DNA of 64,000 bases from IMG/VR virus record IMGVR_UViG_3300042924_004713, positions 1 through 64,000 of that record; one strand, given 5' to 3'. The notes under the pieces were generated by a model. The model was not told where the DNA came from. It was given only the letters and a program-made list of their open reading frames with translations, and ran no database searches. Numbering within the stretch: the first letter of the stretch is position 1; each line of letters starts with the position of its first letter. The DNA comes from a virus. A program made the position numbers and the translations under genes. Shown piece by piece: positions 41,864 to 59,066 of this stretch.

Positions 41864-42228
41864 TAAAAACTATTTCGTCTTCTAGCGCCTTTGTTCAAGT
41901 CACTGGTGGTTTTCCATCAAGCGGACCATACCTACAGACTCCCGCAGTGGCAGGACCTCCTCCTGCTGTTGGAGCTGTGAAATTTGATTCTGCCTCACAA
42001 AACCTACAGGTATGGGATGGCTTCAACTGGTTGAATATGTACACTAGTCATGCCATGGTTGGTTTAAACCCAGCCGCTGAAGACGCAATTAAGTGGGCTC
42101 AACAAAAACAAAAAGAAGAACAAGAACTTGAAGAACTTATGCAACGATCTCCTGCGCTGCGTGATGCCTATGAAAAATTCCAAATAGTAAAGACACTAGC
42201 CACTAATGAAAACAGACAACCAGCATGA
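41860..42228 (+). CDS. Hypothetical phage protein
   Basis: ORF; C-terminal PALRDAYEKF helix. Confidence 0.65.
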   Translation: MIKTISSSSAFVQVTGGFPSSGPYLQTPAVAGPPPAVGAVKFDSASQNLQVWDGFNWLNMYTSHAMVGLNPAAEDAIKWAQQKQKEEQELEELMQRSPALRDAYEKFQIVKTLATNENRQPA

Positions 42229-43744
42229 TCTAACTGCTGCACAAAACGACTATGCTGTGTTTCTTCCAGCAGTGAGTAGTTTTTACAGTACCTATATAGG
42301 ACGTCAACGCTATGAACAGTATGTAGAAGCCACACGCATGCCTGCAGGCATTCCTGACATGGAAATGATGAACTTCTTTAATGATCAAAAGGCATTGTTT
42401 CCTTATCGTTGGGCACTGTATTCTGCAGGACATGCCAATCTGGATCTTACCAAACCAGATCCACGTGAAGACATGATGCGTAATCGAGGTAGTCACACAA
42501 CTCTACTCTGTGACTCTGGTGGATTTCAGATTGCCAAGGGTGTATGGGAGGGAGACTGGCGAGATCCTAAATGTCCGCGAGCTCAAAAGAAACGCGAAGC
42601 AGCACTGAAGTGGCTTGATGGCATGGCTGACTATGGCATGACCTTGGATATTCCCACATGGACTGCCAATGTACCTGGCGCTACAGAAAAAACAGGCATT
42701 AGAGACTACAACGATGCTGTTGCGGCTACACACTATAACAATGAATATTTCATTAAACATCGTCGTGGTGTTGCAGAAGGTGGCACACGTTTCTTGAACG
42801 TTTTGCAAGGAGCCAATCATACCGAAGCAGACGCATGGTATGATCTAATGAAACAGTATTGTGATCCCAAAAAATATCCTGGGCGCCATTTCAACGGCTG
42901 GGGCATGGGAGGACAAAACATGTGTGATGTGCATCTGGTTCTCAAAAGAATAATCACATTGATACATGACGGCTTGTTAGAAAAGGGTGTACATGACTGG
43001 ATGCACTTTTTAGGTACCTCCAAACTTGAGTGGGCAGTATTGCTTACAATCATACAACGCTCAGTACGGCGATACCACAACTCCGACTTCACCATTTCAT
43101 TTGACTGTGCTAGTCCATTTTTGGCCACAGCCAATGGACAACTATATCACACCATTACCACAAAAGATCGAGATAAATGGAGTTATCAAATGAGTCCCAC
43201 AGCAGACAACAAAAAGTTTGCCACTGACTCTAGATCATTCCGTGATGCTGTGATGCAAGAAGGTATTCATCCTGCGTTTGAAGATTCTCCAATATCTGCT
43301 AGACTAAAAATATCCGACGTGTGTGTATACAAGCCTGGCGACCTAAACAAAATTGGCAAGGAAGGACGCACATCATGGGATAGTTTCAGTTATGCCTTGC
43401 TCATGGGACACAATGTGTGGATGCATATCGAAGCCGTACAACGTGCCAACCGAGAGTTTGACACAGGAACATCTCCAGACATGCTGGTGCATCCTCTCAA
43501 TTCAGACTATGATGTGGCAAAAATTATTGATCAAATATTTGCCGCACGTGATCGACAACGCAGTCTACAGATCATAGATGATCATGCTCGTGTGTGGGAA
43601 CGAGTGATTGGGACTCGCGGTTTCACTGGTAAACGAGCAGTCAATGCCAACTCAATGTTCAACAGTCTGTTTGAAACAGTTGAAGACATCGAAACCACAG
43701 ATGAATTGGATCAGGCCAAACTGGATGCATTGGAAGCTGAGTAA
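42206..43744 (+). CDS. dpdA: TGT-fold transglycosylase, DpdA-like (7-deazaguanine insertion)
   Basis: DSGGFQ, MTLDIP, VLQG, GMGG, HFLG, SFD motifs; located with replication and folE/queD/queE genes. Confidence 0.8.
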   Translation: MKTDNQHDLTAAQNDYAVFLPAVSSFYSTYIGRQRYEQYVEATRMPAGIPDMEMMNFFNDQKALFPYRWALYSAGHANLDLTKPDPREDMMRNRGSHTTLLCDSGGFQIAKGVWEGDWRDPKCPRAQKKREAALKWLDGMADYGMTLDIPTWTANVPGATEKTGIRDYNDAVAATHYNNEYFIKHRRGVAEGGTRFLNVLQGANHTEADAWYDLMKQYCDPKKYPGRHFNGWGMGGQNMCDVHLVLKRIITLIHDGLLEKGVHDWMHFLGTSKLEWAVLLTIIQRSVRRYHNSDFTISFDCASPFLATANGQLYHTITTKDRDKWSYQMSPTADNKKFATDSRSFRDAVMQEGIHPAFEDSPISARLKISDVCVYKPGDLNKIGKEGRTSWDSFSYALLMGHNVWMHIEAVQRANREFDTGTSPDMLVHPLNSDYDVAKIIDQIFAARDRQRSLQIIDDHARVWERVIGTRGFTGKRAVNANSMFNSLFETVEDIETTDELDQAKLDALEAE

Positions 43745-43751
43745 ACTGAGT

Positions 43752-43780
43752 TTGACATAATTTGTGTTGTGTTATAAAAT
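43752..43780 (+). promoter_or_regulatory. Sigma70-like promoter
   Basis: TTGACA-17 nt-TAAAAT. Confidence 0.75.
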
Positions 43781-43810
43781 TGCAATAGATTATTTGTGAC
43801 AGGAAAAAGA

Positions 43811-44020
43811 ATGTACCAAGATCAAATACGCCAACTAGAAGTTCAACATCGAGACCTAGACAACAAGATTGACACACTGGAAAAAACCGGCATCTATGAA
43901 GACCTGCGTTTGCAAGAGCTCAAAAAACGCAGACTCATGGTACGAGATCAACTCAGTGAACTAAGACGCAGACAGTTTGAACACGATCACGAACGAGTTA
44001 ATTACGACGATTATGAATAG
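43811..44020 (+). CDS. DUF465/YdcH-like small coiled-coil protein
   Basis: LEVQHRDLDNKI...LQELKKRRLMVRDQL. Confidence 0.7.
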   Translation: MYQDQIRQLEVQHRDLDNKIDTLEKTGIYEDLRLQELKKRRLMVRDQLSELRRRQFEHDHERVNYDDYE

Positions 44021-44543
44021 ATTAGGACATCACAACGCCAACTTCTTTATTGGTAATGAAGTTGAGCATACACCCGCACACGGCAAGCGAACTCTGTTTG
44101 TGGTTGGGTATCAACCCGTGGAAGATATACAGGCAGTGTTAGATGAACACAACAGTTGGACAGACCCTGCTCTACATATCAAGCATATCTTTTTTGGTGC
44201 CAATGACAGCTATCATCCATTGACCAACCCAGATATCGTGGGCTGGGAAAACATCATACACAGTTTTTTGATGCGAGGATACTGGTGTAGTCTTGACATT
44301 CCTTTCAAGTACGTGGCTGAATTCAACGAAAGTGGGCTGTGCGAACACAATCGCTTTATTCCTATAATCAAGGTTCCTGTGCCTTATATCAGATTGTGGA
44401 ACTATAATACCTGTGTGAAAATTGATGACAAAGATTTCGCTGATACCAATCCAGGTGTCTGGGTACACAGACTGCATGACCTCATGCACACAGATTGCTT
44501 TACTGATTGGAGCATGTACAACGACGACAAGGTGACAACATGA
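44013..44543 (+). CDS. Hypothetical phage protein
   Basis: ORF between dpdA-like and dpdL-like genes. Confidence 0.7.
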   Translation: MNRLGHHNANFFIGNEVEHTPAHGKRTLFVVGYQPVEDIQAVLDEHNSWTDPALHIKHIFFGANDSYHPLTNPDIVGWENIIHSFLMRGYWCSLDIPFKYVAEFNESGLCEHNRFIPIIKVPVPYIRLWNYNTCVKIDDKDFADTNPGVWVHRLHDLMHTDCFTDWSMYNDDKVTT

Positions 44544-44851
44544 AATGGTTTGATCAATGGTTTATACGTAAATCTAAATGGGCCTGGGAAAACAAACATT
44601 TGGTGCGTGATGCATACGAAAGCGAGGGTAAATTGGTGAGTTCACAAGCAGTGGAAACTGACCTACATGACTTTAACGATGGTTTGAGAATAGCTGTGAA
44701 AAAAGTTATAGGTGGGTCTGTGGTTACATTCAAAACCTACGATAGAAAAATTGATCGTAGCACAGACAGAACCTATATAATCACTAACGAACAAGATTTC
44801 AATACCGAACTTGGTAAGATTATTACCATGGAAAGTATGCGTCAACATTAA
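44540..44851 (+). CDS. Hypothetical protein
   Basis: ATGA-coupled ORF. Confidence 0.65.
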   Translation: MKWFDQWFIRKSKWAWENKHLVRDAYESEGKLVSSQAVETDLHDFNDGLRIAVKKVIGGSVVTFKTYDRKIDRSTDRTYIITNEQDFNTELGKIITMESMRQH

Positions 44852-45306
44852 TGCAACAACCTCCAAAAATCCTTTATCGCGTAACCAGTCTCGCTGACAG
44901 ATCGGTTAGAGTTCATCATGTTTTACAGCGTCTGAGTAGGGACCAGGTTGTGCGCATTGACCAGTGGTATATGTGGGGGCAAGGCTTTGTTGCCGAGCAC
45001 ACAGATCTCGCCAGATATACCAAGTTTATTGAATGTGATCCCGAGCTAGGTTACCAGGTAGAAAACGAAGTTGCATCAAACTTTCAGTGGGAAGGACCAG
45101 ACTGGAATGAAAAAGCTCAACATCGCATGCAAAAAGATCTTGCCAAAGGTGGAGTACAAAGAATAGTGGAACAACAAAGCAGTTGGAAGCTGCTTGAAAC
45201 AAAAATATGGATCAATGCACCGTTTAGAGTTGACGAAGTTGACTTTTTAAACAATAATATAGTACTCAAGATTGATGTACCTTACAAAGGACAGATTAGA
45301 GCATGA
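44851..45306 (+). CDS. Hypothetical protein
   Basis: TAATG-coupled ORF. Confidence 0.6.
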   Translation: MQQPPKILYRVTSLADRSVRVHHVLQRLSRDQVVRIDQWYMWGQGFVAEHTDLARYTKFIECDPELGYQVENEVASNFQWEGPDWNEKAQHRMQKDLAKGGVQRIVEQQSSWKLLETKIWINAPFRVDEVDFLNNNIVLKIDVPYKGQIRA

Positions 45307-45788
45307 ACTCACAAGAATACATTGACGTTTTAGAATCACACCTACAGGCCTCATTGGACACTAGGAATCGTATTGTGCAACAGGCCAAAAGACAGATTTG
45401 GGTTACGTTCCGCAAAGAAGGCATTCACAAGTATCCAGCGGCTGCTACTGATCCTAATCTAGCCACAGGAGATGCATATGACGTTTCGTTTTTGGCCAAT
45501 GCACATCGCCATATATTTCATTTTAGGGTGTCAATCGACGTATGGCACAATGACCGTGATATCGAGTTCATCCAATTCAAACGATGGCTGGAATCACTGT
45601 ATTCAGGGCAAGAAAATTGTTTGCGATTGGACTACAAAAGCTGCGAAATGATCGCAGATGACTTATACAATCAGATTGCTCAACGTTACCCAGATCGAGA
45701 TATCTGTATTGAAGTAAGTGAAGATGGTGAAAACGGTTGCTGTGTTTACTACAACACACATCAACCTTCTATGAAAGTAAAAATCTAA
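45303..45788 (+). CDS. T-fold QueD paralogue, DpdL-like
   Basis: EGIH, LANAHRHIF (LxxxHRHxF), IEF, SCEMIA, VSEDGENG. Confidence 0.65.
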   Translation: MNSQEYIDVLESHLQASLDTRNRIVQQAKRQIWVTFRKEGIHKYPAAATDPNLATGDAYDVSFLANAHRHIFHFRVSIDVWHNDRDIEFIQFKRWLESLYSGQENCLRLDYKSCEMIADDLYNQIAQRYPDRDICIEVSEDGENGCCVYYNTHQPSMKVKI

Positions 45789-45797
45789 AGGACTACT

Positions 45798-45989
45798 ATG
45801 CCTAATCTAAATAAACTAAACAAGGTTAATGAAACAGTATCAATCTATCGCTATGACAACGGTTGGATGGTTGAAGTTGGTGGCCGTGATGACGACGATG
45901 AGTGGGTAACTGCTAAAGTGATTTGCAACACAGAAGTAGAAGTACTTGATTTAATTAAACAATACAATACACTACCATTGGTGAACTAA
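45798..45989 (+). CDS. Small hypothetical protein
   Basis: ORF with SD. Confidence 0.6.
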   Translation: MPNLNKLNKVNETVSIYRYDNGWMVEVGGRDDDDEWVTAKVICNTEVEVLDLIKQYNTLPLVN

Positions 45990-45999
45990 GGAGATTGAA

Positions 46000-46218
46000 A
46001 TGGCCAAGCCTGTAATCAAGCCAAACCCTCGTGTAACTCAAGTGTTTGATGACCTCGAACGTTATCTTGAATTCTGTCAAGAGTTTGGTTACCGTTACAA
46101 TGAAGCAGAACTTTACAACTGGAAGAGCTATGCTTATCAACAGTTTATGAAGTTCTCTCAAGGCAAACCAGTAAAAGACATGTGGTTTCAAGACCAGCGT
46201 AGGCCTGGGAGACCATAA
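46000..46218 (+). CDS. Small hypothetical protein
   Basis: SD AAGGAG. Confidence 0.65.
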   Translation: MAKPVIKPNPRVTQVFDDLERYLEFCQEFGYRYNEAELYNWKSYAYQQFMKFSQGKPVKDMWFQDQRRPGRP

Positions 46219-46220
46219 TA

Positions 46221-47423
46221 ATGAAAAAACTTTACTACATGGGGCTTGAAAGTTATCAAGCTCGTTACACTCTACAACTAACTGAATGGAATCGACGTGT
46301 GTTTGAACGTCGTGGGTTAGATGTGGTATATGTTCCAGGCACTGCTATAGACAACTCACAGGCCATATCTGTGGGACAGGTTCTAGACGCACATGGTAGA
46401 AGTTACTTTGGCATGAGCCAAATGATGAATCTCGTGCAAATGCATAAGAACGGAGAGATTAGGCATGATGATGTTATCTACTTTGAGGACATGTTTCAAC
46501 CCGGTATCGAGAGCCTACCTTACATATTTGATCAGGTCCCTCGTGATCAGCGTCCCCGTGTTTTTGTTAGGTGTCTTGCTCAGTCCATTGATCCTGATGA
46601 CTTTGTTCATGTATGGGGTCTTGAAAAGTGGATGGCGCATTACGAACGCATGGTCAATGAGTTCGCTACCGGAATTCTCGCCACAAATGAGGAGATGGTT
46701 GCTCATATGCGTATTGCTGGATGGCGTGCTCCTATCTATAATATTTCTGGCCTAGCATTTGGCAAACAAGAAGTGCTGGAACGCATTGGTGGTTCTGACA
46801 ACATCACTCCATTCAACCAACGTCCCATGAGAGTGGGCTTTGCTGCTCGATTTGATCAAGAAAAGCAGCCAGGCTTTTACATGGACTTGATTGATATGTG
46901 GAACAACCAAGCTGATTTCCCAGTGGAGTTTTGCTTGTTCTCTGGTGGGCCACTGCGTTCGAACAATCCAGAGTATATCGCTCGAGCTCGTGATCTTGAA
47001 GCACAAGGTCTCCTGACCATTCATGAGAATCTAACCAAGAATGATTACTATGATCTGCTCAATAACACGCGAGTTCTTTTCAATTGCGCACTACAAGATT
47101 GGGTGTCAAACACTGTTAGTGAAGCTGATACCCTGGGTTGCAATGTATTATACCCTGCTTATCGTAGCTTCCCAGAAACTTTTGCAAATGATCCCAACCG
47201 TCTTTATGTTCCTTGGAGCATTGATGATGCATTCCACAAGCTGGAGAATCTACTGAAAGCACCACATCACAACATGGGCTTGATTTCAGATTGGAACGAT
47301 GGCACAGTGGATCGTGTGGTCGATATCATACTAGGACATGGTGAACAATGGAATCGCAGCGGCAATCGCTACAGAGATCATTTGCCCGGTGACAAATATC
47401 ATGTTAGAAAAATAGGTGAGTAA
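46221..47423 (+). CDS. GT-B-fold glycosyltransferase
   Basis: FAARFDQEKQP, ALQDWVSNTVSEA, LYPAYRSFPE. Confidence 0.8.
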   Translation: MKKLYYMGLESYQARYTLQLTEWNRRVFERRGLDVVYVPGTAIDNSQAISVGQVLDAHGRSYFGMSQMMNLVQMHKNGEIRHDDVIYFEDMFQPGIESLPYIFDQVPRDQRPRVFVRCLAQSIDPDDFVHVWGLEKWMAHYERMVNEFATGILATNEEMVAHMRIAGWRAPIYNISGLAFGKQEVLERIGGSDNITPFNQRPMRVGFAARFDQEKQPGFYMDLIDMWNNQADFPVEFCLFSGGPLRSNNPEYIARARDLEAQGLLTIHENLTKNDYYDLLNNTRVLFNCALQDWVSNTVSEADTLGCNVLYPAYRSFPETFANDPNRLYVPWSIDDAFHKLENLLKAPHHNMGLISDWNDGTVDRVVDIILGHGEQWNRSGNRYRDHLPGDKYHVRKIGE

Positions 47424-47462
47424 CTTGCTGGCTAAATACTGGCTCTACTCAATAACTCCCCC

Positions 47463-48383
47463 ATGAAAATATTCATTACCGGCAGTAACGGCTTTATCGG
47501 CCAACATCTTTTGCCTTTGTTACAACAACGTCATACTGTGGTTGAGCTTGTTAGCGACCTTAGAGATCATGCCAAGGTTGTAGCTGAACTGCAAGCAGCT
47601 AACCCAGATATAGTAGTACATCTGGCTGCTCGCACCGAAGTTGAAAAAAGTTTTTATGAGCAAGTTACTTTTAGTGACATCAACTACGTGGGCAGTGTTA
47701 ATCTCATCGACGCAGCCAGCAAGTTAAGTAATCTCAAAAACTTTGTGTTTGCTAGTACCATGGAAGTCTATGGCTGGCAACCTATCAGCGATGAAGTCCG
47801 TGATCATGGCAAACCACTTGTGTCATTGGCTTTTGACGAAAACACTGTGCCCAATCCCAATGCTCCTTATGCAGTGGCAAAGCTAGCAGTGGAAAAATAC
47901 TTGGAATATGCTCATCGTGCTCTAGGTCTACCTTTCACAGCATTACGACAAACCAACAGCTATGGTCGTGGTGACAATGACTTCTTTGTAACAGAACAAA
48001 TTGTCACACAGATGTTGCAAGGTCTTGATGTAGTGAAGTTAGGCTATGCCGAACCCTATAGAAACTTTATCTGGATTGAAGATTTGTTGCAAGCCTGGAT
48101 GCAAGTGATTGAAAATCCTGAGCAATGCAATCAAGGCAAGATCTACACCGTGGGTCCTGACAATCCAATCAAGATAAGAGATTATGCAGAAAAGATTGCA
48201 GGCATGATTGGCTGGCAAGGCGAAATAAAATGGAATACCAAGCCGCATCGTCCCGGAGAAATCTACTGGTTAAATTCGGGTACCACAGCTATTACTCGTG
48301 ATCTTGGATGGCGCCCTGTGATTGATATGGACACAGGTTTAGAAAAGACTATAAAAATATGGCGCCAGAAATTCAACAAATAA
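47463..48383 (+). CDS. NAD-dependent nucleotide-sugar epimerase/dehydratase
   Basis: ITGSNGFIG, HLAA, ASTMEVYG, PYAVAK (YxxxK). Confidence 0.92.
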   Translation: MKIFITGSNGFIGQHLLPLLQQRHTVVELVSDLRDHAKVVAELQAANPDIVVHLAARTEVEKSFYEQVTFSDINYVGSVNLIDAASKLSNLKNFVFASTMEVYGWQPISDEVRDHGKPLVSLAFDENTVPNPNAPYAVAKLAVEKYLEYAHRALGLPFTALRQTNSYGRGDNDFFVTEQIVTQMLQGLDVVKLGYAEPYRNFIWIEDLLQAWMQVIENPEQCNQGKIYTVGPDNPIKIRDYAEKIAGMIGWQGEIKWNTKPHRPGEIYWLNSGTTAITRDLGWRPVIDMDTGLEKTIKIWRQKFNK

Positions 48384-48913: not shown

Positions 48914-48922
48914 ACTAGCAAC

Positions 48923-48947
48923 AGTCATCCTCGACTCAAACTCGGAG
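48923..48947 (+). promoter_or_regulatory. Candidate SD-occluding mini-pseudoknot in the folE leader
   Basis: AGTC/GACT stem, loop ATCCTC whose TCC complements GGA of the SD. Confidence 0.35.
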
Positions 48948-48954
48948 AAAAACA

Positions 48955-49779
48955 TTGTCAAACACTTATACCCCTGATCCACTACTCAACACACCTGTAG
49001 ACACAGAGTTTCAGCCACAAACCTATCAAGATCGATATGTGCCTTTGCCCACAAAGGTCTATGTCAAGGCCGGCGAAGTTGGACGACGCCAAGAATATGT
49101 GTCAGATCTAATCAAAGCTCGGATGAAGACTGATAACAAACGTTTTTGGGCCGGTGACAACATCAGTGACTATATCACAGCAGAACAAAAGAGTCAGCTA
49201 ATTGATGAAGCCACCGAAGCCTTTGAGCTTGTGTTGGATCGATTGTTGATTGATCGTGAAAACGATCCTAACTCACAAGGCACAGCCAGGCGCTTGGCCA
49301 AGATGTACTTCAATGAAATAATGGCAGGTAGATACGAACCAAGTCCCAACGCCACAGCTTTTCCAAACGACACAGAAGATCGTTATGAGGGCATGCTGGT
49401 TGTACGCAGTGAGCTTCGTAGTATGTGTAGTCACCATCACCAACCAGTCAGCGGAGTTGCATATATTGGTATCATTGCTGCGGAAAAACTCATTGGTTTG
49501 TCTAAGTACACTCGTATCGCCCAATGGTGCGCTCGTCGTGGCACACTACAGGAAGAGCTGTGCAATGATATCGCCAGAGAAATCATGAAAGCCACAGGCA
49601 GCAAAAACGTAGGTGTATACATTCAAGCCACACACGGTTGCTGTGAAAATCGCGGCATCATGGCACATTCAAGTCTAACACAAACCACTGTATTGACCGG
49701 AGCTTTCAAAGACGATCCCAGCGTCAAGAAAGAGTTCATGGACAATATCAAACTTCAACAAGAATTCGCTCCGAGGTAA
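48955..49779 (+). CDS. folE: GTP cyclohydrolase I
   Basis: TARRLAK, SMCSHH, IGLSKYTR, LQEEL, HGCCENRG; TTG start after GGAG. Confidence 0.95.
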   Translation: MSNTYTPDPLLNTPVDTEFQPQTYQDRYVPLPTKVYVKAGEVGRRQEYVSDLIKARMKTDNKRFWAGDNISDYITAEQKSQLIDEATEAFELVLDRLLIDRENDPNSQGTARRLAKMYFNEIMAGRYEPSPNATAFPNDTEDRYEGMLVVRSELRSMCSHHHQPVSGVAYIGIIAAEKLIGLSKYTRIAQWCARRGTLQEELCNDIAREIMKATGSKNVGVYIQATHGCCENRGIMAHSSLTQTTVLTGAFKDDPSVKKEFMDNIKLQQEFAPR

Positions 49780-49781
49780 TC

Positions 49782-49949
49782 ATGGAAATACAACCCAAAG
49801 ACACAAGCAAAGGACATTTTTATGTTAGTCTTGCCAAAAGCGGCATTAGGATATTTGCTGGAGGCGTGTTGATGGTAGGAAACTTTTGGCTAGCAGGAGT
49901 ATGCATCGTACTGGCTGAAGTATTAGGCGTAGTGGAGGAAATAGTATGA
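49782..49949 (+). CDS. Small membrane protein (55 aa)
   Basis: Not in ORF track; MEIQPKDTSKGHFYVSLAKSGIRI...LAEVLGVVEEIV; SD GAGG; ATGA coupling. Confidence 0.7.
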   Translation: MEIQPKDTSKGHFYVSLAKSGIRIFAGGVLMVGNFWLAGVCIVLAEVLGVVEEIV

Positions 49950-50314
49950 GTGTGTTTCTAGACCAGATGGCTTTTATGTTGGCTTGCGATCAAACAGTTG
50001 GCAAGTTCAACCAAGAACAATTCAACATGTATCTAAGCTTGATACAAGAAGAAGCAGACGAACTTGCACAAGCTATCCAACAGCATGACAAAGTTGAAAC
50101 CTTGGATGCATTGATTGACATCTTAGTGGTTACCATTGGTGCTATTCACAGCCTTGGAGTAGATGCCGAGGGAGCCTGGAACGAAGTGTTGGTTAGTAAT
50201 TTGGCCAAGATTGACAAAGACACTGGTAAAGTGCGCAAACGCGAAGATGGCAAAGTTCTTAAACCAGAAGGCTGGCAACCTCCTAATCTTGGAAAATACG
50301 TTCGTCCACTGTAA
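49946..50314 (+). CDS. MazG-like all-alpha NTP pyrophosphohydrolase
   Basis: LIQEEADEL, ETLDALID, SNLAK, DGKVLKP. Confidence 0.85.
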   Translation: MSVFLDQMAFMLACDQTVGKFNQEQFNMYLSLIQEEADELAQAIQQHDKVETLDALIDILVVTIGAIHSLGVDAEGAWNEVLVSNLAKIDKDTGKVRKREDGKVLKPEGWQPPNLGKYVRPL

Positions 50315-50324
50315 AGGATTCAGC

Positions 50325-50573
50325 ATGAAGAATGAACTACCAAAAGACTTTTACAAAAACCAAGCCAGTGCTGTGATAGATCGAGTTAGAAATCTCAAAA
50401 CCTGGGAAATCACTAGAGTGCTTGACGAGCCGTTGGAATTTAGAGGAGGTCCTGTGCCTTTTGATATCAAGGCCGATCAAAAACGTGCTTGGTTCAAAGT
50501 GATAGCATTGACCAAACAAGAAGCAGAGCAGATGGTCGATGATTGGATGCGAGGAGCAGACCATGATCTCTGA
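50325..50573 (+). CDS. Hypothetical protein
   Basis: SD AAGGA; ORF. Confidence 0.6.
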   Translation: MKNELPKDFYKNQASAVIDRVRNLKTWEITRVLDEPLEFRGGPVPFDIKADQKRAWFKVIALTKQEAEQMVDDWMRGADHDL

Positions 50574-50952
50574 TCTTGATCGTGCTATCGCAGACAAAAG
50601 AGCTCCTTGGACTGAGATAGAACGCACCGAATCTTTGTACACAGTGTTCAGAGATGCATTTGCAGTGACTCCTGGACATTTGTTGTTTGTTCCCGCACAA
50701 GAAACCTGGGAATGTGTTGCGGCCTGCTATCAAGCTGCTTACGAAACTGGAGCAGCCGGTGTGACGCAGGGTCAATGGGACGCTTTTAACATCGGACAAA
50801 ATGTTGGTGAGGCTGCTGGACAAACTGTGATGTATCCACATGTTCACATGATACCACGTAGACAAGGTGATTGTGCTGATCCCACGGGTGGAGTACGTGG
50901 AGTGATTTCCAGTCAACAAAACTACAAACGACCTGGATATATCAAACCATGA
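50563..50952 (+). CDS. HIT-family nucleotide hydrolase
   Basis: VTPGHLL, NVGEAAGQTV, YPHVHMIPR. Confidence 0.9.
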   Translation: MISDLDRAIADKRAPWTEIERTESLYTVFRDAFAVTPGHLLFVPAQETWECVAACYQAAYETGAAGVTQGQWDAFNIGQNVGEAAGQTVMYPHVHMIPRRQGDCADPTGGVRGVISSQQNYKRPGYIKP

Positions 50953-51851
50953 AGAAACTTTTGACTATGTTGTTGCTGTTGACTATGTCAGTTTCAGTCA
51001 ACGCTAAAAAATCTACGTCGCATCACCCAGCAGTTTGGGTCTACAACATTACCAAACAAGAGATAGTTACCGCACGGTTTCACAATGAGACCATGCCCAT
51101 TGCCAGTATAACCAAACTCATGACCGCCATGGTATCCTTGGATTATGATCGCGATCTTGAGAGAAAAATCACAATGTTGCCGGGTGGACGACTGCCCGCA
51201 GGTGAACACAGTCGTCGTGATGTAATGACAGCAATGTTGGTGCGCAGTGATAACATAGCAGCCGAAAGCATAGCCAGGGACTATCCTGGAGGTCGTAAAG
51301 ACTTTATCAAGGCCATGAATCGCAAGGCACAGGAGATTGCCATGGTTGGTGCCAGATTCATGGATCCCACAGGACTGAGTTCTAGCAACGAAGCCACTGC
51401 TGGCAGCGTGGGCAACATGGTGCAGATTGCATCACTGTATCCTTTCATTGTGGAAACCAGTGTGAAAAAGCATGTGCTATTTGAGGTCAATAGAAAACGA
51501 AAGATTAGAACAATTTCTATTGACAATACTAACAAGCCCTTGCTTATGGAGTTTGACCAAATACGTGTGAGCAAAACTGGTTTTACAAATTCAGCTGGTT
51601 GGTGTGTGGGCATGTTAGTAGAAAGCAAAGGTCAGGAGTTTGTGATTGTGATTCTTCACAGTGAAAGCAAACAAAAAAGATATGAGCTAGCGAAATCTAC
51701 CATTTACAATAATTTGGTTGATCATGAAGTTGATAATGTGGTCAATGACTCAGATCCCCAACCAGAACCTGCGCCAGAACCAGAAACCATTGACAAAACA
51801 ATTTATAGATGGTATAATAAGTTTTGGCTGTCAATAACCGGCAAATCCTAA
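50949..51851 (+). CDS. Peptidase S11 D-Ala-D-Ala carboxy/endopeptidase (PBP7-like), secreted
   Basis: Signal peptide; ASITK (SxxK), SDN, KTG. Confidence 0.92.
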   Translation: MKKLLTMLLLLTMSVSVNAKKSTSHHPAVWVYNITKQEIVTARFHNETMPIASITKLMTAMVSLDYDRDLERKITMLPGGRLPAGEHSRRDVMTAMLVRSDNIAAESIARDYPGGRKDFIKAMNRKAQEIAMVGARFMDPTGLSSSNEATAGSVGNMVQIASLYPFIVETSVKKHVLFEVNRKRKIRTISIDNTNKPLLMEFDQIRVSKTGFTNSAGWCVGMLVESKGQEFVIVILHSESKQKRYELAKSTIYNNLVDHEVDNVVNDSDPQPEPAPEPETIDKTIYRWYNKFWLSITGKS

Positions 51852-51865
51852 CTGGGAGAAATAAC

Positions 51866-52474: not shown

Positions 52475-52788
52475 CTCTAGAAGAAGCAGTTGAACTAATA
52501 GAAAATCTCAACGAAGAAGCACATCAACTGGCATGGGATGCGTGGACCGAAGCAGATGAACTAGGAGACTCCGAAGACGAGGATGACTGGATCGCTGCTG
52601 AAGAAAAACGTGAAGAAGCCAGTGAGGAACAGTCGCAACACTTCAGAGATCTGTATCATGAGTTGTCAGAAGAAGATCAAGCCGGTATTATTAATTGGCT
52701 TCAACAAGACGAAGACTTTAGAGAGCAGTTTTCTTCGTGGTTTGGTGATGATCAATATCAAATTGAGTTTGATTTTTTAGAAGACTAA
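52471..52788 (+). CDS. Very acidic small protein
   Basis: 37 D/E and 4 K/R in 105 aa (hand count). Confidence 0.7.
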   Translation: MTLEEAVELIENLNEEAHQLAWDAWTEADELGDSEDEDDWIAAEEKREEASEEQSQHFRDLYHELSEEDQAGIINWLQQDEDFREQFSSWFGDDQYQIEFDFLED

Positions 52789-52799
52789 ATATCAATCAC

Positions 52800-52863
52800 A
52801 GCGGCCTTCCTGGCTCTTCATCCCGCTTTACAAATTCTGCAGGCCTATATTAACTTATAGGAG
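52800..52863 (+). promoter_or_regulatory. Candidate switchable RNA leader of queD
   Basis: AGCGG/CCGCT stem; CCTATA/TATAGG hairpin over the SD; alternative GGCCT/AGGCC pairing. Confidence 0.5.
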
Positions 52864-52869
52864 AATTAC

Positions 52870-53388
52870 GTGCTTTACCTAAATGAAACACAACCCCCAA
52901 GAACTTACAAATATGTAAGCACCAAAGAGTATCATGATGCTTTTCCCTGTGCGTATCGCCAATGGCGTGCGGATAGTCATTGTAACTTGATTCATGGTTA
53001 CAGTTTTAGCATGAAGTTCTACTTTGGCACAGATCTACTTGATGTGCGCAACTGGGCAGCTGACTATGGCGGCCTTAAAGAGCTTAAAAAGATTCTAGAA
53101 GATCAATTTGATCATACCTTGCTAGTAGCCATGGATGACCCAGAACTAGAAACATTCAAATTACTGCAAGAAAAGAAGTTAGCCAAACTTACTATTCTTC
53201 CTAGACTAGGCTGCGAAGGCCTAGCCGATATGCTGTACAAGTATGTGAATGGCGTGTATATTCCTGATATGTGGGGGCCTGGAGAGTCTGAAAGACTTTG
53301 GTGCTTCCGTGTGGAAGTACGCGAAACACAAAGCAACATGGCGTTCCGTGAGGGTCACCGTGAATGGGATGAAGATCTGTTTGCGTAA
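52870..53388 (+). CDS. queD: 6-carboxy-5,6,7,8-tetrahydropterin synthase
   Basis: HCNLIHGY, DYGGLKELK, FDHTLL, CEGLA, VEVRET. Confidence 0.88.
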   Translation: MLYLNETQPPRTYKYVSTKEYHDAFPCAYRQWRADSHCNLIHGYSFSMKFYFGTDLLDVRNWAADYGGLKELKKILEDQFDHTLLVAMDDPELETFKLLQEKKLAKLTILPRLGCEGLADMLYKYVNGVYIPDMWGPGESERLWCFRVEVRETQSNMAFREGHREWDEDLFA

Positions 53389-53539
53389 TTTTTGGAGACT
53401 ATGGGCCAAAGCCCTAGGAGAAAAAGCCACTCAATCTGATTCTGAATCTGACAAAGTGGCTTTGATTCGCTCTGGTATTGTACTGATCTACATTGTCACA
53501 AATTTTTTTATCATAGCAGGTATTATTAGGCACTGGTAG
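53381..53539 (+). CDS. Small membrane protein
   Basis: WRLWAKALGEKA followed by a TM helix; TTG start inferred. Confidence 0.6.
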   Translation: MRNFWRLWAKALGEKATQSDSESDKVALIRSGIVLIYIVTNFFIIAGIIRHW

Positions 53540-53557
53540 TGTGCTAGGAGTAAACAT

Positions 53558-53773
53558 ATGAGTCAACGTATTCAAGAACTTGCCGATCAAGCCAAAGAGT
53601 CAGTGCCAAAAAATATACTGGCTCCTGATCTATGGATAAAAGAATACAATCGAATATTTGCGGAATTGATCATCAAAGAATGTGCTGGTCAGTTTAATCT
53701 TGTGTATACTGACGAGCAGTATCAACGTAGAATAGACAAAACTATACTCAAACATTTTGGCTTGTACGCATGA
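53558..53773 (+). CDS. Hypothetical phage protein
   Basis: SD AGGAG; FAELIIKEC motif also in 54247-54579. Confidence 0.65.
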   Translation: MSQRIQELADQAKESVPKNILAPDLWIKEYNRIFAELIIKECAGQFNLVYTDEQYQRRIDKTILKHFGLYA

Positions 53774-54009
53774 GATACTGGACCATATGTTATCCTGATC
53801 GTCATCCCACACAAGACTTTGATATTGATCGCTGGGAGACTCTGTCAGATCAGGAGATACTGGATTCCTATTGGGATTATTGGTCAGGTAAAATGCTTGA
53901 AAAAGGTCCTAATGATTCTTGCACCTATGAGAACTGCATTACTGATTGGTGTATTGTACACTGGGCAGCTCGCAATCGTTGGCGTGAAATCAAGGAGTAC
54001 TATGAATGA
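53770..54009 (+). CDS. Hypothetical phage protein
   Basis: ATGA-coupled, Trp-rich. Confidence 0.65.
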   Translation: MRYWTICYPDRHPTQDFDIDRWETLSDQEILDSYWDYWSGKMLEKGPNDSCTYENCITDWCIVHWAARNRWREIKEYYE

Positions 54010-54263
54010 AACCCTTGATCTATAAGTTTCATCATTGGGCCAAGATTTGGGAACGAATCAAACAAGATAATCCTCCCAGTGTATATCTCATACGCAGCAA
54101 CATGCGGAAGACGCTGGGATTCACAGTGCGTGAGCATTTACACTTTGACAGAGAAAGTCATAGCTATCGGCCTGAGGTACATCTAGATTTTTATGGTGAA
54201 AAGTACCTTAGTCATTTTTTACTCAAGTACGGAAATATCAAACATCATGACGAGACCAAGTGA
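54006..54263 (+). CDS. Hypothetical phage protein
   Basis: ATGA-coupled. Confidence 0.65.
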   Translation: MKPLIYKFHHWAKIWERIKQDNPPSVYLIRSNMRKTLGFTVREHLHFDRESHSYRPEVHLDFYGEKYLSHFLLKYGNIKHHDETK

Positions 54264-54579
54264 TTTCCCTGACTTTGATCGAGCCTACAAGTCGGTGCTG
54301 TTACCAGACAATCCTGACAGGTTTGACCATATAGCGGCACAGGCTAATTTTAATATCTATCACAACGATCTTTGGCGCGGCACAGCGCGACGATTCGCTG
54401 AGTACATCGTGGAAGAGTGTGCGCAGTGCTGTGGAAGCCAGGCAGACAAAAAGGCCATACGAAAAAGATTTGGTTTGCCTATTGAAGATCCAGTGAAATA
54501 TCCGGGACCGGATCCCTTGGGCAGTGTACAATCTCAATATGCCCGAGAGTATAATCTTCCAAAAACAGATGAAACCTAG
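54247..54579 (+). CDS. Hypothetical phage protein
   Basis: ORF; FAEYIVEEC motif. Confidence 0.55.
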   Translation: MTRPSDFPDFDRAYKSVLLPDNPDRFDHIAAQANFNIYHNDLWRGTARRFAEYIVEECAQCCGSQADKKAIRKRFGLPIEDPVKYPGPDPLGSVQSQYAREYNLPKTDET

Positions 54580-55684
54580 CCATTTTTATTTTGACAATCG
54601 CATTCTAGAAAAAGAACAACTGCTGTTCAATCATGCTCGTTATGTGGGACATGAACTGTTGGTTCCTGGCCTGGGTAACTATGCTGTGATCCCACAGGAA
54701 GGCGATGGTAGAATGTTGATCAACAACAGTGATGGCGTGCAACTCATGAGCAATGTGTGCAGACATCGACAAGCAACTATCTTGCAGGGATCAGGACATC
54801 ATGCACAAATTGTTTGCCCACTGCATGGTTGGACCTATGACAATCACGGCAAGCTCATTGGTGCGCCTTTTTTTGATCCATGCCCAGATCGACATTTACA
54901 AAAGTTTACCACTCAATCCTGGCATGGATTGATATTTGAACAAGGTCATTTTGATCTGGTAAAAGCACTAGATCAAATCACTCACAAGTCTTATTTTAAC
55001 TTTAACAACTATGCGTTTCACAGCCGCCAGCAGCATTGGTGCAACTATAATTGGAAGACCTTTGTTGAAGTATACTTAGAAGACTATCATGTGGATGCAT
55101 TTCATCCAGGACTAGGTAACTTTGTAGATTGCAAACAGCTTACTTGGCAATTCAATGATCACTACAGTGTGCAGAGTGTGGGGATCAAACAGCGTTTACA
55201 GACTCCGGGCACACCTGTGTATCGTACCTGGCACAAAGCAGTAACTGACAGATGCCGTCCAAATCTACCAGACTATGGAGCCATTTGGTTGTTGATATAT
55301 CCCAACGTCATGGTAGAGTGGTATCCAGAGGTCTTGGTAATCAGCAGTGTATGGCCAGAGTCACCACAACGAACTTTGAACATAGTGGACTTTTACTATC
55401 CCGAAGAAATCGCACACTTTGAAGCAGATTTCGTAGAAGCACATCAAGCTGCCTACATGGAGACCTGCTACGAAGATGATGAAATAGCTGAACGCATGGA
55501 TCGCGGTCGTAGGCATCTTGACAGTCGAGGAGCCAATGACACAGGTCCTGTACAAGATCCTATGGAAACAGGACTAAAGAAATTTCATGATTACTACGAC
55601 CAATGGATTTTTACAGAACAACATAGAGCGTATGTCGCGCCGCGCATTGAAGATCCAGGCAGCGAAGGCGGAACATTGGATTGA
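54569..55684 (+). CDS. Rieske non-heme iron oxygenase alpha subunit
   Basis: NVCRH...CPLHGWTY Rieske motif; NWK..E...EDYHVDAFH and ED mononuclear iron site. Confidence 0.93.
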   Translation: MKPSHFYFDNRILEKEQLLFNHARYVGHELLVPGLGNYAVIPQEGDGRMLINNSDGVQLMSNVCRHRQATILQGSGHHAQIVCPLHGWTYDNHGKLIGAPFFDPCPDRHLQKFTTQSWHGLIFEQGHFDLVKALDQITHKSYFNFNNYAFHSRQQHWCNYNWKTFVEVYLEDYHVDAFHPGLGNFVDCKQLTWQFNDHYSVQSVGIKQRLQTPGTPVYRTWHKAVTDRCRPNLPDYGAIWLLIYPNVMVEWYPEVLVISSVWPESPQRTLNIVDFYYPEEIAHFEADFVEAHQAAYMETCYEDDEIAERMDRGRRHLDSRGANDTGPVQDPMETGLKKFHDYYDQWIFTEQHRAYVAPRIEDPGSEGGTLD

Positions 55685-55976
55685 TCAGATCATGCCCATA
55701 GCTCGAATACCCAACTCATTGCTGCAAGAAGTAGGACAATGGAGTTTGATACGCTCGGAGATCAACAAAACCATTGCAGAGCAAAACAATCACGCTAATT
55801 ATCAGCAGCAGCAACGTATTGATCAACTGCATGAGGCACGTAGAATTCTACGTAACTACCACTATCAGAAAGACACTGAATGGATACGCAATTACGAATT
55901 CTATGAGTCGATCAAAGAACAACGCCTACTAGCAAGACACACCGTGAGAGGTATTTTTGTCGATCGTTACGTTTAA
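55632..55976 (+). CDS. Hypothetical protein
   Basis: ORF; start uncertain. Confidence 0.45.
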   Translation: MSRRALKIQAAKAEHWIDQIMPIARIPNSLLQEVGQWSLIRSEINKTIAEQNNHANYQQQQRIDQLHEARRILRNYHYQKDTEWIRNYEFYESIKEQRLLARHTVRGIFVDRYV

Positions 55977-55996
55977 ATTACAAGCAAGGAAACAGA

Positions 55997-56833
55997 ATGG
56001 AAAATTCCAAAAATCACAAATTTGATATAGCAGTGTTGCTGCCTACTAGAGGTCGTACCACTGCACTGATGCGCAGCATCATGAGTCTAGTTAATAGAAC
56101 AAGAAATCTTGATCGTATTCAATTCTTTATTGGGCTTGATGAAGATGACACAGTGGGTATAAACTATTGGCAGACCGAAGTAGAACCATTGCTGCGTCAA
56201 CGCTCTGCTAACTTTACTGCCATGGTATTTGAGCCTTTGGGATATATCAGACTCAACGAATATGTAACCGAACTAGCCAAACATTCGGATAGCAAGTGGT
56301 TGATGTTCTGGAATGACGATGCAATCATGGAGAGTCAGAACTGGGACGAGGAAATAATGAAATATCAAGGACAGTTCAAGGTGCTAGCAGTACACACGCA
56401 TCGTGAACATCCTTATAGCATTTTCCCCATAGTGCCAAGAGATTGGCTGGATCTTTTTGGTTACATGAGTCCACATCAACTCAGCGATGCTTGGATCAGT
56501 CAGATAGGATATTTGGTTGATATCTGGGAACGCATACCAGTTTGGGTCACACATGATCGTTTTGACCTCACCGGCAACAACAACGATGACACGTACAATA
56601 ATCGTCCTCAATTAGAAAATCAACCTGACAATCCAGAAGATTTTCACAGCAACAAATGGCACACTCGCAGAGTCAATGATGCTGAACGTTTGAGTCAACT
56701 GTTGGCTTCTAGAGGCATTGATCAAACTTGGTGGGAAAATTGCAAATCAGGCAAACAAGATCCCTGGGTCAAACTCAGTGCTAACGACATAAACAAACAA
56801 ATGACACAAACGAGAACAGTTAATGGCCAATAA
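55997..56833 (+). CDS. GT2-like glycosyltransferase
   Basis: IAVLLPTRGR, LDEDD, MFWNDD. Confidence 0.75.
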   Translation: MENSKNHKFDIAVLLPTRGRTTALMRSIMSLVNRTRNLDRIQFFIGLDEDDTVGINYWQTEVEPLLRQRSANFTAMVFEPLGYIRLNEYVTELAKHSDSKWLMFWNDDAIMESQNWDEEIMKYQGQFKVLAVHTHREHPYSIFPIVPRDWLDLFGYMSPHQLSDAWISQIGYLVDIWERIPVWVTHDRFDLTGNNNDDTYNNRPQLENQPDNPEDFHSNKWHTRRVNDAERLSQLLASRGIDQTWWENCKSGKQDPWVKLSANDINKQMTQTRTVNGQ

Positions 56834-57605
56834 CAGTGAACTGGTAGAAAAAATTCAAGCCTATTGGGACAGGCAACCCTGTAACATTAGGCATAGTCAA
56901 AAACCTCTAGGCAGCGTAGAATACTTTGAAGAAGTCACAGCTCGTCGCTATAGAGTTGAGCCTCATATCTTGGACTTTGCGCAGTTTCATCGCTGGCAGG
57001 GCAAGAGAGTATTAGAAATTGGCTGTGGTATTGGCACTGATGCCGAGCAGTTTGTGCGTCATGGTGCAGAATATGTGGGCATTGACATATCAGATGCCAG
57101 TCTACAAATCTGTCGTGAAAGATTCAAGGTCATGGATCTTCATGGAGAATTCCACAATGTAAACCTATTGGATCCAGATCACATGGATCTTGGTCAGTTT
57201 GATCTTGTGTACAGTTATGGAGTCATACATCATAGTCCAGACATTGATCATCACATCACTGAGATACACAAGCTTTTGCGACCAAACGGTGAGTTTAGAT
57301 TCATGGTCTATGCCAAGAATTCATGGAAATATGCCATGATTCAAAAAGGACTTGATCAGTTTGAAGCACAAGCAGAATGTCCTTATGCTGAGGCCTTTAC
57401 TAGAGATGAAATTGAGGACATGTTAGATGGAATTTTTGACATCGAACGTATTAGACAAGCGCACTGTTTCATGTATAATGTAGCTGCATATCGCGAAGGT
57501 AGATATGAACTTGAACCCTGGTTTGCAGCAATGAGTGACACTATGCGTGATGCTGTGAGAGAATATCTGGGTTGGCATCTTTTGGTCAAGGCACGTAAAA
57601 AATGA
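56823..57605 (+). CDS. Class I SAM-dependent methyltransferase
   Basis: VLEIGCGIG, GIDIS, FDLVYSYGVIHH, LRPNG. Confidence 0.92.
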   Translation: MANNSELVEKIQAYWDRQPCNIRHSQKPLGSVEYFEEVTARRYRVEPHILDFAQFHRWQGKRVLEIGCGIGTDAEQFVRHGAEYVGIDISDASLQICRERFKVMDLHGEFHNVNLLDPDHMDLGQFDLVYSYGVIHHSPDIDHHITEIHKLLRPNGEFRFMVYAKNSWKYAMIQKGLDQFEAQAECPYAEAFTRDEIEDMLDGIFDIERIRQAHCFMYNVAAYREGRYELEPWFAAMSDTMRDAVREYLGWHLLVKARKK

Positions 57606-58168
57606 AAAAAATTCATATTTCTGACAAAGAAGTACGAGGCATGGTATTGGATATCCTGCGTCAAATGACTCAAGATCGTTGGCTTCCGGACTATGTGGTT
57701 GGACTCACTCGTGGTGGACTTGTACCTGCTAACATGATAAGCCAGTACTTGAAAGTGCCCATGGAGACTCTCAAGGTCAGCCTGCGTGACCAAAATTCTG
57801 AACCCGAAAGTAATCTGTGGATGGCCGAGGATGCATTTGGTTACATACCTCAAGAACAGCGAGGTGCGTCAGGAACAGTGACTGATCCTGCACTGCGCAA
57901 AAAAATCTTGATTGTGGACGATATCAACGACAGCGGCGCTACATTCAACTGGATTACCAAAGATTGGCCATCTGGCTGTATGCCAAATGAAACACATGTT
58001 TGGCGAGCTATTTGGAATCATTCGGTGAGATTTGCTGTGTTGGTAGACAACGCCAGCAGCAAGTCTGAGGTTTCTATGAACTATAGTGCTCGTACAATCA
58101 ACAAGTTCGAAGATCCTAGTTGGATTGTTTTTCCCTGGGAGCAATGGTGGCATCCAACAAAAATTTGA
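57602..58168 (+). CDS. Type I purine phosphoribosyltransferase (Gpt-like)
   Basis: VGLTRGGLVPA, ILIVDDINDSGAT PRPP loop, WIVFPWE. Confidence 0.9.
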   Translation: MKKIHISDKEVRGMVLDILRQMTQDRWLPDYVVGLTRGGLVPANMISQYLKVPMETLKVSLRDQNSEPESNLWMAEDAFGYIPQEQRGASGTVTDPALRKKILIVDDINDSGATFNWITKDWPSGCMPNETHVWRAIWNHSVRFAVLVDNASSKSEVSMNYSARTINKFEDPSWIVFPWEQWWHPTKI

Positions 58169-58193
58169 CACAACACACTAACTCAAGTATAAT
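58165..58193 (+). promoter_or_regulatory. Consensus sigma70 promoter; probably leaderless transcript
   Basis: TTGACA-17 nt-TATAAT, ATG 6 nt after the -10 box. Confidence 0.88.
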
Positions 58194-58199
58194 CTACAC

Positions 58200-59066
58200 A
58201 TGGAAAAGATAACCTATACTGAAATTTTCTACAGCCTACAAGGCGAAGGAATGTATGCTGGCGTGCCCAGCATTTTCTTTCGTACCTATGGTTGTAACTT
58301 TAGATGCCGTAAATTTGGTAGATCACAAGATGAACAGATTGACGGACATAATCCTGAAGTGGTTGAAATCATCAAAAACATTGCACAGTACAATAAATTT
58401 GAAGACCTACCTCTGGTGACCACAGGATGCGATACCTATGCGTCAATCTATCCCGAGTTCAAGCGTTTCAATCAACAAGAAACAGTGTCAACCATTGCTG
58501 ATCAAATCCATGCACTATTGCCTGGTAACGTATGGCAAGATTCACATTTGATCATCACAGGTGGTGAGCCCTTGCTGGCCTATCAACAACTGTATCCGGA
58601 ACTCTTAGAACTGTGTAGAGCCAAGGGACTGCGACATCTTACATTTGAAACCAACGGTACTCAAAAGATCTATCCTGAAGTAGAAGAATATCTGTTTCAA
58701 GAGTTCACAAGACATGGACGCGACTTTGAGAACTTGACATTCAGTGTGAGTCCTAAACTGCCGTGTTCTGGTGAACCGTTTGAACGAGCCATACAACCTG
58801 AAGTTGTGCATCAATACGCATTGTATGGTCGAGTATACTTGAAATTTGTAGTGGCTACTCAGCAAGACGTAGAAGACGCAGAACGTGCTGTGGCCGAGTA
58901 TCGCAAACACAACGTGAACTGTCCAGTGTATCTCATGCCTGTGGGTGGTGTACCACAGGTGTATAACTTGAATACTCAACAGGTTGCACAGCTAGCACTG
59001 GAGAGAGGATGGCGTTACAGTCCAAGGCTACAAGTTGATATTTGGCGCAACGCATGGGGAACGTAA
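58200..59066 (+). CDS. queE: 7-carboxy-7-deazaguanine synthase (radical SAM)
   Basis: EIFYSLQGEG, RTYGCNFRC...GCDT, ITGGEPL, ETNGT, SPK, SPRLQ. Confidence 0.93.
   Translation: MEKITYTEIFYSLQGEGMYAGVPSIFFRTYGCNFRCRKFGRSQDEQIDGHNPEVVEIIKNIAQYNKFEDLPLVTTGCDTYASIYPEFKRFNQQETVSTIADQIHALLPGNVWQDSHLIITGGEPLLAYQQLYPELLELCRAKGLRHLTFETNGTQKIYPEVEEYLFQEFTRHGRDFENLTFSVSPKLPCSGEPFERAIQPEVVHQYALYGRVYLKFVVATQQDVEDAERAVAEYRKHNVNCPVYLMPVGGVPQVYNLNTQQVAQLALERGWRYSPRLQVDIWRNAWGT

Follow-up and report, generated by a model that had tools for sequence, protein, structure and literature searches.

The first 64 kb (64,000 nt, here called the window) of the linear IMG/VR virus record IMGVR_UViG_3300042924_004713, a record of 166,408 bp estimated to be ~48% complete, carries at positions 42206-59066 a run of genes, nearly all on the plus strand, whose core is the published DpdL-type 7-deazaguanine system, closest to the form found in the phages ACP17, PA5oct, and BUCT-ZZ01. 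We read this span, with a probability of roughly 0.6, as a post-replicative DNA-modification module. In such a module, FolE, QueD, and QueE would convert GTP to 7-carboxy-7-deazaguanine (CDG), DpdL would strip the carboxyl group to give 7-deazaguanine (a step proposed in the literature), and a 512-aa protein with the fold of tRNA-guanine transglycosylase (TGT) would put the deaza base in the place of guanine in phage DNA after its synthesis. A phosphoribosyltransferase (PRTase) may then recycle the expelled guanine to GMP and on to GTP, the precursor of FolE, and a GT4-like glycosyltransferase, a sugar epimerase, and a conserved protein, o188, are clade-wide partners that may decorate the base further.

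Genes and gene order of the QueC-less pathway

The core genes, and the polymerase gene that heads the conserved block, are:
37495..40161, + strand: family B DNA polymerase, PolB (PF00136, E 5.4e-35; PF03104)
42206..43744, + strand: predicted TGT-fold, DpdA-like transglycosylase of the PA5oct type, 512 aa (predicted fold, conserved aspartates)
45303..45788, + strand: DpdL homologue, a QueD paralogue and second T-fold protein (LANAHRHIF; phrog_17812, E 9e-34)
48955..49779, + strand: FolE, GTP cyclohydrolase I (PF01227, E 4.7e-40; NCBIfam FolE models)
52870..53388, + strand: QueD, phage type (PF01242, E 1.5e-14; phrog_2389, E 2.5e-35)
58200..59066, + strand: QueE, 7-carboxy-7-deazaguanine synthase (phrog_2076, E 3.4e-51)

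The conversion of GTP to CDG is established for the FolE, QueD, and QueE families. Here, FolE is 38% identical to that of the Cellulophaga phage phiST, QueD is 54% identical to that of ACP17, and QueE scores below the cut-offs of the five QueE NCBIfam models that it matches (E 1e-13 to 1e-16). The DpdL homologue carries the motif LANAHRHIF at residues 64-72, which aligns with the motifs of phiST, ACP17, and BUCT-ZZ01; this LxxxHRHxF signature stands where QueD has CxxxHGH. Over its length, the protein is 33% identical to DpdL of phiST (gp040 / CGPG_00067, E 1e-17), 49-54% to that of ACP17 (E 3e-34 to 2e-42), and 55-57% to that of PA5oct. In phiST, a gene set comprising FolE, QueD, QueE, a MazG/dUTPase-like protein, DpdL, and a distant TGT homologue termed DpdA3, with no QueC, accompanies complete replacement of G by 2'-deoxy-7-deazaguanine (dDG; 302,000 per 10^6 nucleotides), which its authors conclude is inserted post-replicatively (PMC10516641).

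Because the analysed record is only a fragment, we also searched its relatives for QueC. None was found in the 166-kb record, in the large relative G001 (320 kb, 93% complete), or in four other large records, which together with the analysed record make up six large clade records; QueE is present in all five large relatives. QueF was likewise missing from the record and the large relatives, and DUF5591, the core of ArcS, from the record and G001. Weak PF06508 matches in G001, G002, and G004 extend over no more than the PP-loop and were rejected as QueC; in G001, the matching gene encodes an NAD synthase (PF02540, E 6e-47). Among 13 cultured DpdL phage lineages that we used for comparison, 12 have no credible QueC, the exception being a partial match in D479. 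Lacking QueC, the pathway cannot reach 7-cyano-7-deazaguanine (preQ0). An earlier reading of the letters alone (the original prediction) had described a queC-, queF-, and arcS-free pathway of the DpdL type and had suggested looking for queC in the rest of the genome; in the record, that search came back empty, and the absence of all three genes extends to the whole record and to the 93%-complete G001. Every gene that it named—folE, queD, queE, the TGT-fold gene, the T-fold gene with LxxxHRHxF, and those for the PRTase, MazG, and HIT proteins—lies where it had been placed, and its statement that a QueD paralogue is proposed to decarboxylate CDG agrees with the literature (PMC10516641).

Megablast of the whole span against 50,697 phage records gave no match. 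We compared 80 related loci, taking synteny counts from the 38 with at least 10 kb downstream. PolB lies upstream of the transglycosylase gene in 80/80 loci (2 kb upstream in the window, bearing out the predicted adjacency to replication genes), and the synteny in PA5oct is identical. The order in the 38 loci runs PolB, o314, o240, transglycosylase, o188, DpdL, GT4, epimerase, FolE, (HIT), QueD, (second glycosyltransferase, methyltransferase), PRTase, and QueE, with genes in parentheses being optional. DpdL and o188 occur in all 38, GT4 in 36, the epimerase in 35, FolE within 10 kb in 34 (the remaining loci end before the gene), HIT between FolE and QueD in 15, and MazG within 10 kb in only 2. 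As this order is kept among relatives whose transglycosylases are only 56-91% identical, the arrangement is not due to chance.

Several features of these enzymes deserve mention in their own right. FolE has a ~90-aa N-terminal extension, its Pfam match running from residue 97 to 265 in a protein of 274 aa. In QueE, the radical-SAM cysteines are spaced C32-x3-C36, followed by a ~40-aa insert and C77, an arrangement common to the clade, PA5oct, and BUCT-ZZ01; ACP17 has CX3CX2C and phiST CX3CX7C. QueD reads C-N-L-I-H-G-Y (C-x3-H-G-Y) in place of the signature CxxxHGH, and most phage QueD proteins that we examined, including those of phiST and of phage Iggy, pair C-x3-H-G-Y with (F/Y)RQW rather than the textbook C-x3-H-G-H with AAHRL (window 52870-53388; L115:92-550; L002, L003, L087, and L101-L111). 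Judging from these alignments, tyrosines seem to replace two canonical zinc histidines out of three in an entire phage QueD subfamily. Exceptions are RHph_I1_18, which has HGY without a clear (F/Y)RQW; PA5oct, which has both HGH- and HGY-type proteins; and Bakedbeans, in which only the HGH type was seen. The HGY form is probably a functional phage type, since it also occurs in phiST and in Iggy, which makes deoxy-preQ0 (dPreQ0). We considered whether QueD activity might be split between the HGY protein and DpdL, which keeps the histidines and has lost the cysteine, in which case DpdL would be no decarboxylase; this was rejected because Iggy makes dPreQ0 with an HGY QueD and QueC and has no DpdL match.

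A predicted TGT-fold transglycosylase

The 512-aa protein was identified only by its predicted fold and by hhalign, sequence libraries being silent: it has no match in Pfam, PHROG, or NCBIfam, phmmer found none in the PDB, a profile of 66 family members matched no PDB chain, and the Pfam TGT model (PF01702) hit neither this protein nor anything else in the 166-kb record. Its AlphaFold2 model (pLDDT 91.4, pTM 0.90), built from the alignment of those 66 members (A1; 26-42% identity), resembles TGT closely enough that the top 50 Foldseek matches in the PDB were all tRNA-guanine transglycosylase (Zymomonas mobilis TGT; E 5e-8 to 6e-7, probability 1.00), with TM scores of 0.37-0.43 normalised by query and 0.48-0.57 by target. 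The protein contains the motifs DSGGFQ, VLQG, a Gly-rich GWGMGG, and HFLG; every member of A1 keeps D103 (of DSGGFQ), S104, G106, P150, H267, G270, and D300, and at least 90% keep D148. Three active-site aspartates, serving as acid/base, in base recognition, and as nucleophile, are invariant in TGT and DpdA (PMC10164549), and D103, D148, and D300 would fit this triad by motif order, as opposed to residue superposition. Both fold and predicted catalytic residues thus agree with the "TGT-fold DpdA-like" label that the gene had been given, though the enzyme differs from that of phiST.

The family is large, with at least 7,970 matching proteins in a 90%-clustered metagenome collection (928 clusters at 50% identity) and no precomputed Pfam domain among the matched members. 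Its closest cultured homologues are in PA5oct and its kin (35% identity, EST35_0316), Phosso, and Vibrio phage 2.275.O. The ACP17 enzyme is a remote homologue (hhalign 96.5%); it and that of BUCT-ZZ01 belong to another large family, which the A1 profile reaches at E 4e-9 or not at all. Among structures in BFVD, its matches include the Motura TGT (1e-11), R9TGF0 of Vibrio phage nt-1 (2.7e-10), and, far behind, phiST DpdA3 (E 2.9e-3; TM 0.25 by query and 0.44 by target). BLASTP against phiST DpdA3 was not significant, and hhalign gave a probability of 71% over 82 columns. Given this weak homology, the difference in size (512 aa against 259 aa), and the greater structural closeness of the Motura and nt-1 proteins, the transglycosylase is not a member of the DpdA3 subfamily of phiST and CP220. 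DpdA3 and DpdA4 were themselves recognised only through HHpred (PMC10516641).

Compared with bacterial DpdA (Salmonella Montevideo, PDB 7UI4; PMC10164549) and Z. mobilis TGT, the phage enzyme shares the TIM-barrel fold and three aspartates in the same order, but it lacks sequence-level matches to Pfam TGT or the PDB, has a ~180-aa C-terminal extension, shows no DpdB-type ATPase partner, and presumably uses a base other than preQ0. In Vibrio phage 2.275.O, a genuine QueC (E 1.7e-51) lies 3 kb downstream of the transglycosylase gene and DpdL has no match, so that the family is used in preQ0-type as well as in DpdL-type pathways. The 2.275.O protein (L097 / W14:330306-331961) also gives two profile matches within one 610-aa frame, implying an insertion of ~100 aa.

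Partner genes and competing readings

Beside the core lie the following genes:
44013..44543, + strand: conserved protein o188, 176 aa, kept in relatives (true start ATG 44013; the listed open reading frame begins too early, at TTG 43977)
46221..47423, + strand: GT4-like (GT-B) glycosyltransferase (weak PF13524; Atlas neighbours carry Glycos_transf_1 / GT4 families)
47463..48383, + strand: NAD-dependent sugar epimerase/dehydratase (PF01370, E 1.4e-41; PF16363, E 1.8e-38)
49946..50314, + strand: NTP pyrophosphohydrolase of the MazG/PRA-PH type (PF01503, E 2.6e-12)
50539..50952, + strand: HIT-family protein, semi-conserved (PF01230, E 6.9e-9)
57602..58168, + strand: purine-type PRTase (PF00156, E 3.7e-14)

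GT4 directly follows DpdL in the relatives that have it, and the cyanophage BUCT-ZZ01, which is not otherwise related, has a copy 66% identical that adjoins DpdL. ACP17, PA5oct, BUDD, and BCSR5 have weaker copies near DpdL, and in Phosso a gene annotated as a glycosyltransferase comes after it. No match was found in phiST or in 2.275.O; as the latter combines QueC with the same transglycosylase family and has no DpdL, GT4 tracks DpdL rather than the type of transglycosylase. The short-chain dehydrogenase/reductase (SDR) epimerase that follows GT4 in the relatives is mostly a paralogue of the window's, at ~22% identity. In most relatives, o188 is the very next gene after that for the transglycosylase, and a homologue directly precedes the ACP17 transglycosylase. 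Its alignment shows 27 invariant positions, among them E16, E18, H58, D95, K136, D138, D139, and H152. Searches with its AlphaFold2 model (pLDDT 87) found nothing below E 0.03 in Foldseek, and an exhaustive VIA comparison peaked at Z 6.4 (RsbS, QueE, and others), a value that lies in the range of noise.

The PRTase gene ends 32 nt upstream of queE, directly before it as predicted, and the two are also neighbours in PA5oct, BUCT-ZZ01, G001, G002, and G003. It is found in five of the six large clade records but in only 4/13 cultured DpdL lineages; phiST has a homologue (33% identical) elsewhere in its genome. Its best PDB matches are the archaeal purine PRTases 1vdm and 4z1o, and the xanthine PRTase NCBIfam model gives a score of 35 bits, well short of the 138 that it requires. 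The motif VDDxxD(S/T)G is kept in 10/10 aligned phage PRTases. In HGPRT and XGPRT, the last Asp of this motif acts on purine N7, an atom that 7-deazapurines lack, which favours guanine, xanthine, or hypoxanthine as substrate. On these sequence features, salvage of a normal 6-oxopurine is most likely the role of this enzyme, and is more likely than one like that of TubE, discussed below. MazG and HIT genes do follow folE, as had been noted, and are accessory. The PRA-PH-type MazG is absent from G001, G002, G004, and the cultured DpdL phages, save for a sub-threshold match in BUDD, and BLAST found no similarity to the MazG-like gp039 of phiST; with such poor conservation and no BLAST kinship, MazG was ruled out as an integral, dGTP-clearing partner. 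In G005 (G005:C1:31694-33215), the usual place of the PRTase, just upstream of QueE, is taken by two MazG-like genes, and no PRTase was found in that record.

Several observations weigh against a DpdL-type post-replicative module. DpdL is so far a proposed CDG decarboxylase, and Escherichia coli that expressed DpdL of phiST or ACP17 with the matching DpdA formed no dDG (PMC10516641). Measurements of dDG come solely from the phiST group (PMC10516641); that group lacks GT4, the present transglycosylase is only remotely related to its 259-aa DpdA3, and our literature search found no published DNA chemistry for phages with this form of the module (ACP17, PA5oct, and BUCT-ZZ01). Its activity on DNA, as opposed to tRNA or nucleotides, we infer from the context of the enzyme: PolB as neighbour, synteny shared with PA5oct, whose DNA is G-modified, and phage proteins as structural neighbours. 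The salvage role of the PRTase depends on one conserved residue and best database matches, and GT4, the epimerase, and o188, nearly universal in the clade, have no role in the explanation that we favour.

These last genes bear on what the final base is. The original prediction of unsubstituted 7-deazaguanine holds as to its QueC-less route; the plain base is insecure, with GT4 and the epimerase locked to DpdL and dDG known only from phiST and its group. As a refinement of the DpdL-type module, GT4 and a sugar nucleotide shaped by the epimerase might glycosylate deazaguanine, as free base or in DNA, so that the genome would carry a sugar-bearing 7-deazapurine not yet described. We hold this only tentatively, and it is no more than a conjecture, at odds well short of even, that the clade together with PA5oct, BUCT-ZZ01, and ACP17 replaces guanine with a sugar-bearing or further-built 7-deazaguanine by means of GT4, the epimerase, and o188. 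Besides the tracking of DpdL by GT4, precedent comes from natural products: enzymes of the GT4 family glycosylate 7-deazapurine bases in the biosynthesis of huimycin, where HuiG uses UDP-GlcNAc, and of dapiramicin, which bears a deoxy-sugar disaccharide (bioRxiv 10.64898/2026.04.15.718813). The authors of the failed dDG reconstitution also suggest that other enzymes may be needed (PMC10516641). On the other hand, phiST makes plain dDG without any GT4, 7/13 cultured DpdL lineages have no GT4 match (one of them being Phosso, with its annotated glycosyltransferase), plain 7-deazaguanine offers no obvious hydroxyl acceptor, such that the sugar would need N2 or another nitrogen, GT4 could instead serve virion glycosylation, and purines modified with sugars are not known from any DNA. 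Very improbable, in our view, is that DNA is not the target at all, the TGT-fold enzyme acting on tRNA or the cluster making a free deazapurine nucleoside or glycoside. The best solved-structure matches of the fold are indeed tRNA-guanine transglycosylases, and the PRTase, glycosyltransferases, methyltransferase, and epimerase recall deazapurine natural-product clusters; those clusters, however, have no transglycosylase (bioRxiv 10.64898/2026.04.15.718813). Moreover, the gene has replication genes as its neighbours, both here and in PA5oct, a phage with DNA that resists cleavage at G-containing restriction sites, its structural matches include proteins of DNA-modifying phages such as Motura and nt-1, and it has neither a Pfam TGT match nor a detectable tRNA-binding domain of the PUA type.

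Incorporation during replication, which the original prediction had entertained by way of the PRTase and MazG, we consider improbable. By this route, the PRTase would join CDG or 7-deazaguanine to phosphoribosyl pyrophosphate (PRPP), DpdL would remove the carboxyl group either ahead of this coupling or following it, the product would be carried to deaza-dGTP by kinases and ribonucleotide reductase, and the polymerase would incorporate it while MazG lowered dGTP. Its precedent is the tubercidin pathway of Streptomyces tubercidicus (TubA/B/C, TubE, TubF), which follows the same QueC-less route from GTP to CDG and reaches an unsubstituted 7-deazapurine through a CDG-specific PRTase, TubE, with decarboxylation after ribosylation (PMC6112128). 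There, however, the decarboxylase TubF is a UbiD enzyme using prenylated FMN (prFMN) and acting on the nucleotide, whereas the phage candidate is a T-fold protein; the pathway has no transglycosylase, its product is a free nucleoside, and TubE is likened to the phage PRTase by pathway, not by sequence. The linkage of PRTase and queE in several phages, the MazG gene beside folE, and the paired MazG-like genes of G005 speak for incorporation by the polymerase, as does the PRTase of phiST, where all G is replaced, an outcome that would be hard to attain by base exchange alone. Ribonucleotide reductase, which was not found in the analysed fragment, is encoded by relatives, and this too speaks for the route; a gene of the guanylate-kinase type was found in neither the record nor its relatives, which speaks against it. 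Against this route also stands the TGT-fold enzyme, present with intact aspartates in 80/80 loci, which it would render redundant. MazG is mostly missing, the PRTase is lacking from 9/13 cultured DpdL lineages and retains the Asp for the N7 of 6-oxopurines, and the authors of the phiST study conclude in favour of post-replicative insertion (PMC10516641).

The remaining genes of the span vary among relatives:
54524..55684, + strand: Rieske oxygenase, ring-hydroxylating alpha subunit (Pfam/PHROG; 0/38 relatives)
55997..56833, + strand: second glycosyltransferase (Pfam/PHROG; 11/38 relatives)
56823..57605, + strand: SAM methyltransferase (Pfam/PHROG; 3/38 relatives)

With such counts, these three are variable, tailoring-type genes and not part of the core. 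An S11 D-Ala-D-Ala carboxypeptidase gene (50949-51851) also lies inside the cluster and is found at that place in 0/38 relatives; it and the Rieske oxygenase are probably recent insertions. None of these four genes had been named in the original prediction, nor had GT4, the epimerase, or o188. Directly upstream of PolB is a gene for a radical-SAM/SPASM protein (36404-37450; PF04055, E 5e-11; PF13186, E 2e-7), present in 16/80 loci. Just past the cluster are a cytidylyltransferase-like gene (60012-60485), also found close to QueE in a small number of relatives (L024, L068), and a DUF6071-like gene (60669-61367).

Known relatives and implications

The dDG system of phiST (PMC10516641) shares with the window the QueC-less FolE, QueD, and QueE, a DpdL with LxxxHRHxF, and a divergent enzyme of the TGT superfamily encoded near polymerase genes, but phiST has no GT4, epimerase, or o188, and its MazG-like gene is of another family. 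Relative to phiST, the window thus differs in its transglycosylase family, in its conserved GT4, epimerase, and o188, and in its queE-linked PRTase. Much closer is the form seen in ACP17, PA5oct, and BUCT-ZZ01, in which DpdL is 49-57% identical to that of the window and adjoined by a GT4-like gene. PA5oct has the same synteny from PolB to QueE with a transglycosylase 35% identical, and, as in BUCT-ZZ01, a PRTase beside QueE; ACP17 lacks the PRTase. Beyond these phages, the window adds MazG, HIT, the Rieske oxygenase, the second glycosyltransferase, and the methyltransferase. PA5oct had earlier been credited with a deazaguanine system (PMC7824862), and its DNA, besides being resistant at G-containing sites, is a target of a defence nuclease with recognition of modified G (PMC12191111).

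Reconstitution of dDG by the published model failed; GT4, the epimerase, o188, and the PRTase, which fall outside that model, are candidates for missing components of the dDG pathway. Were the base to carry a sugar, glycosylation of a purine in DNA would be known for the first time. Phage DNA is protected by 7-deazaguanine bases against restriction enzymes and certain other defences that target DNA, and the same bases disturb sequencing and enzymatic handling. Given how common this Pfam-invisible transglycosylase family is, G-modified DNA may be widespread among uncultured freshwater giant phages.

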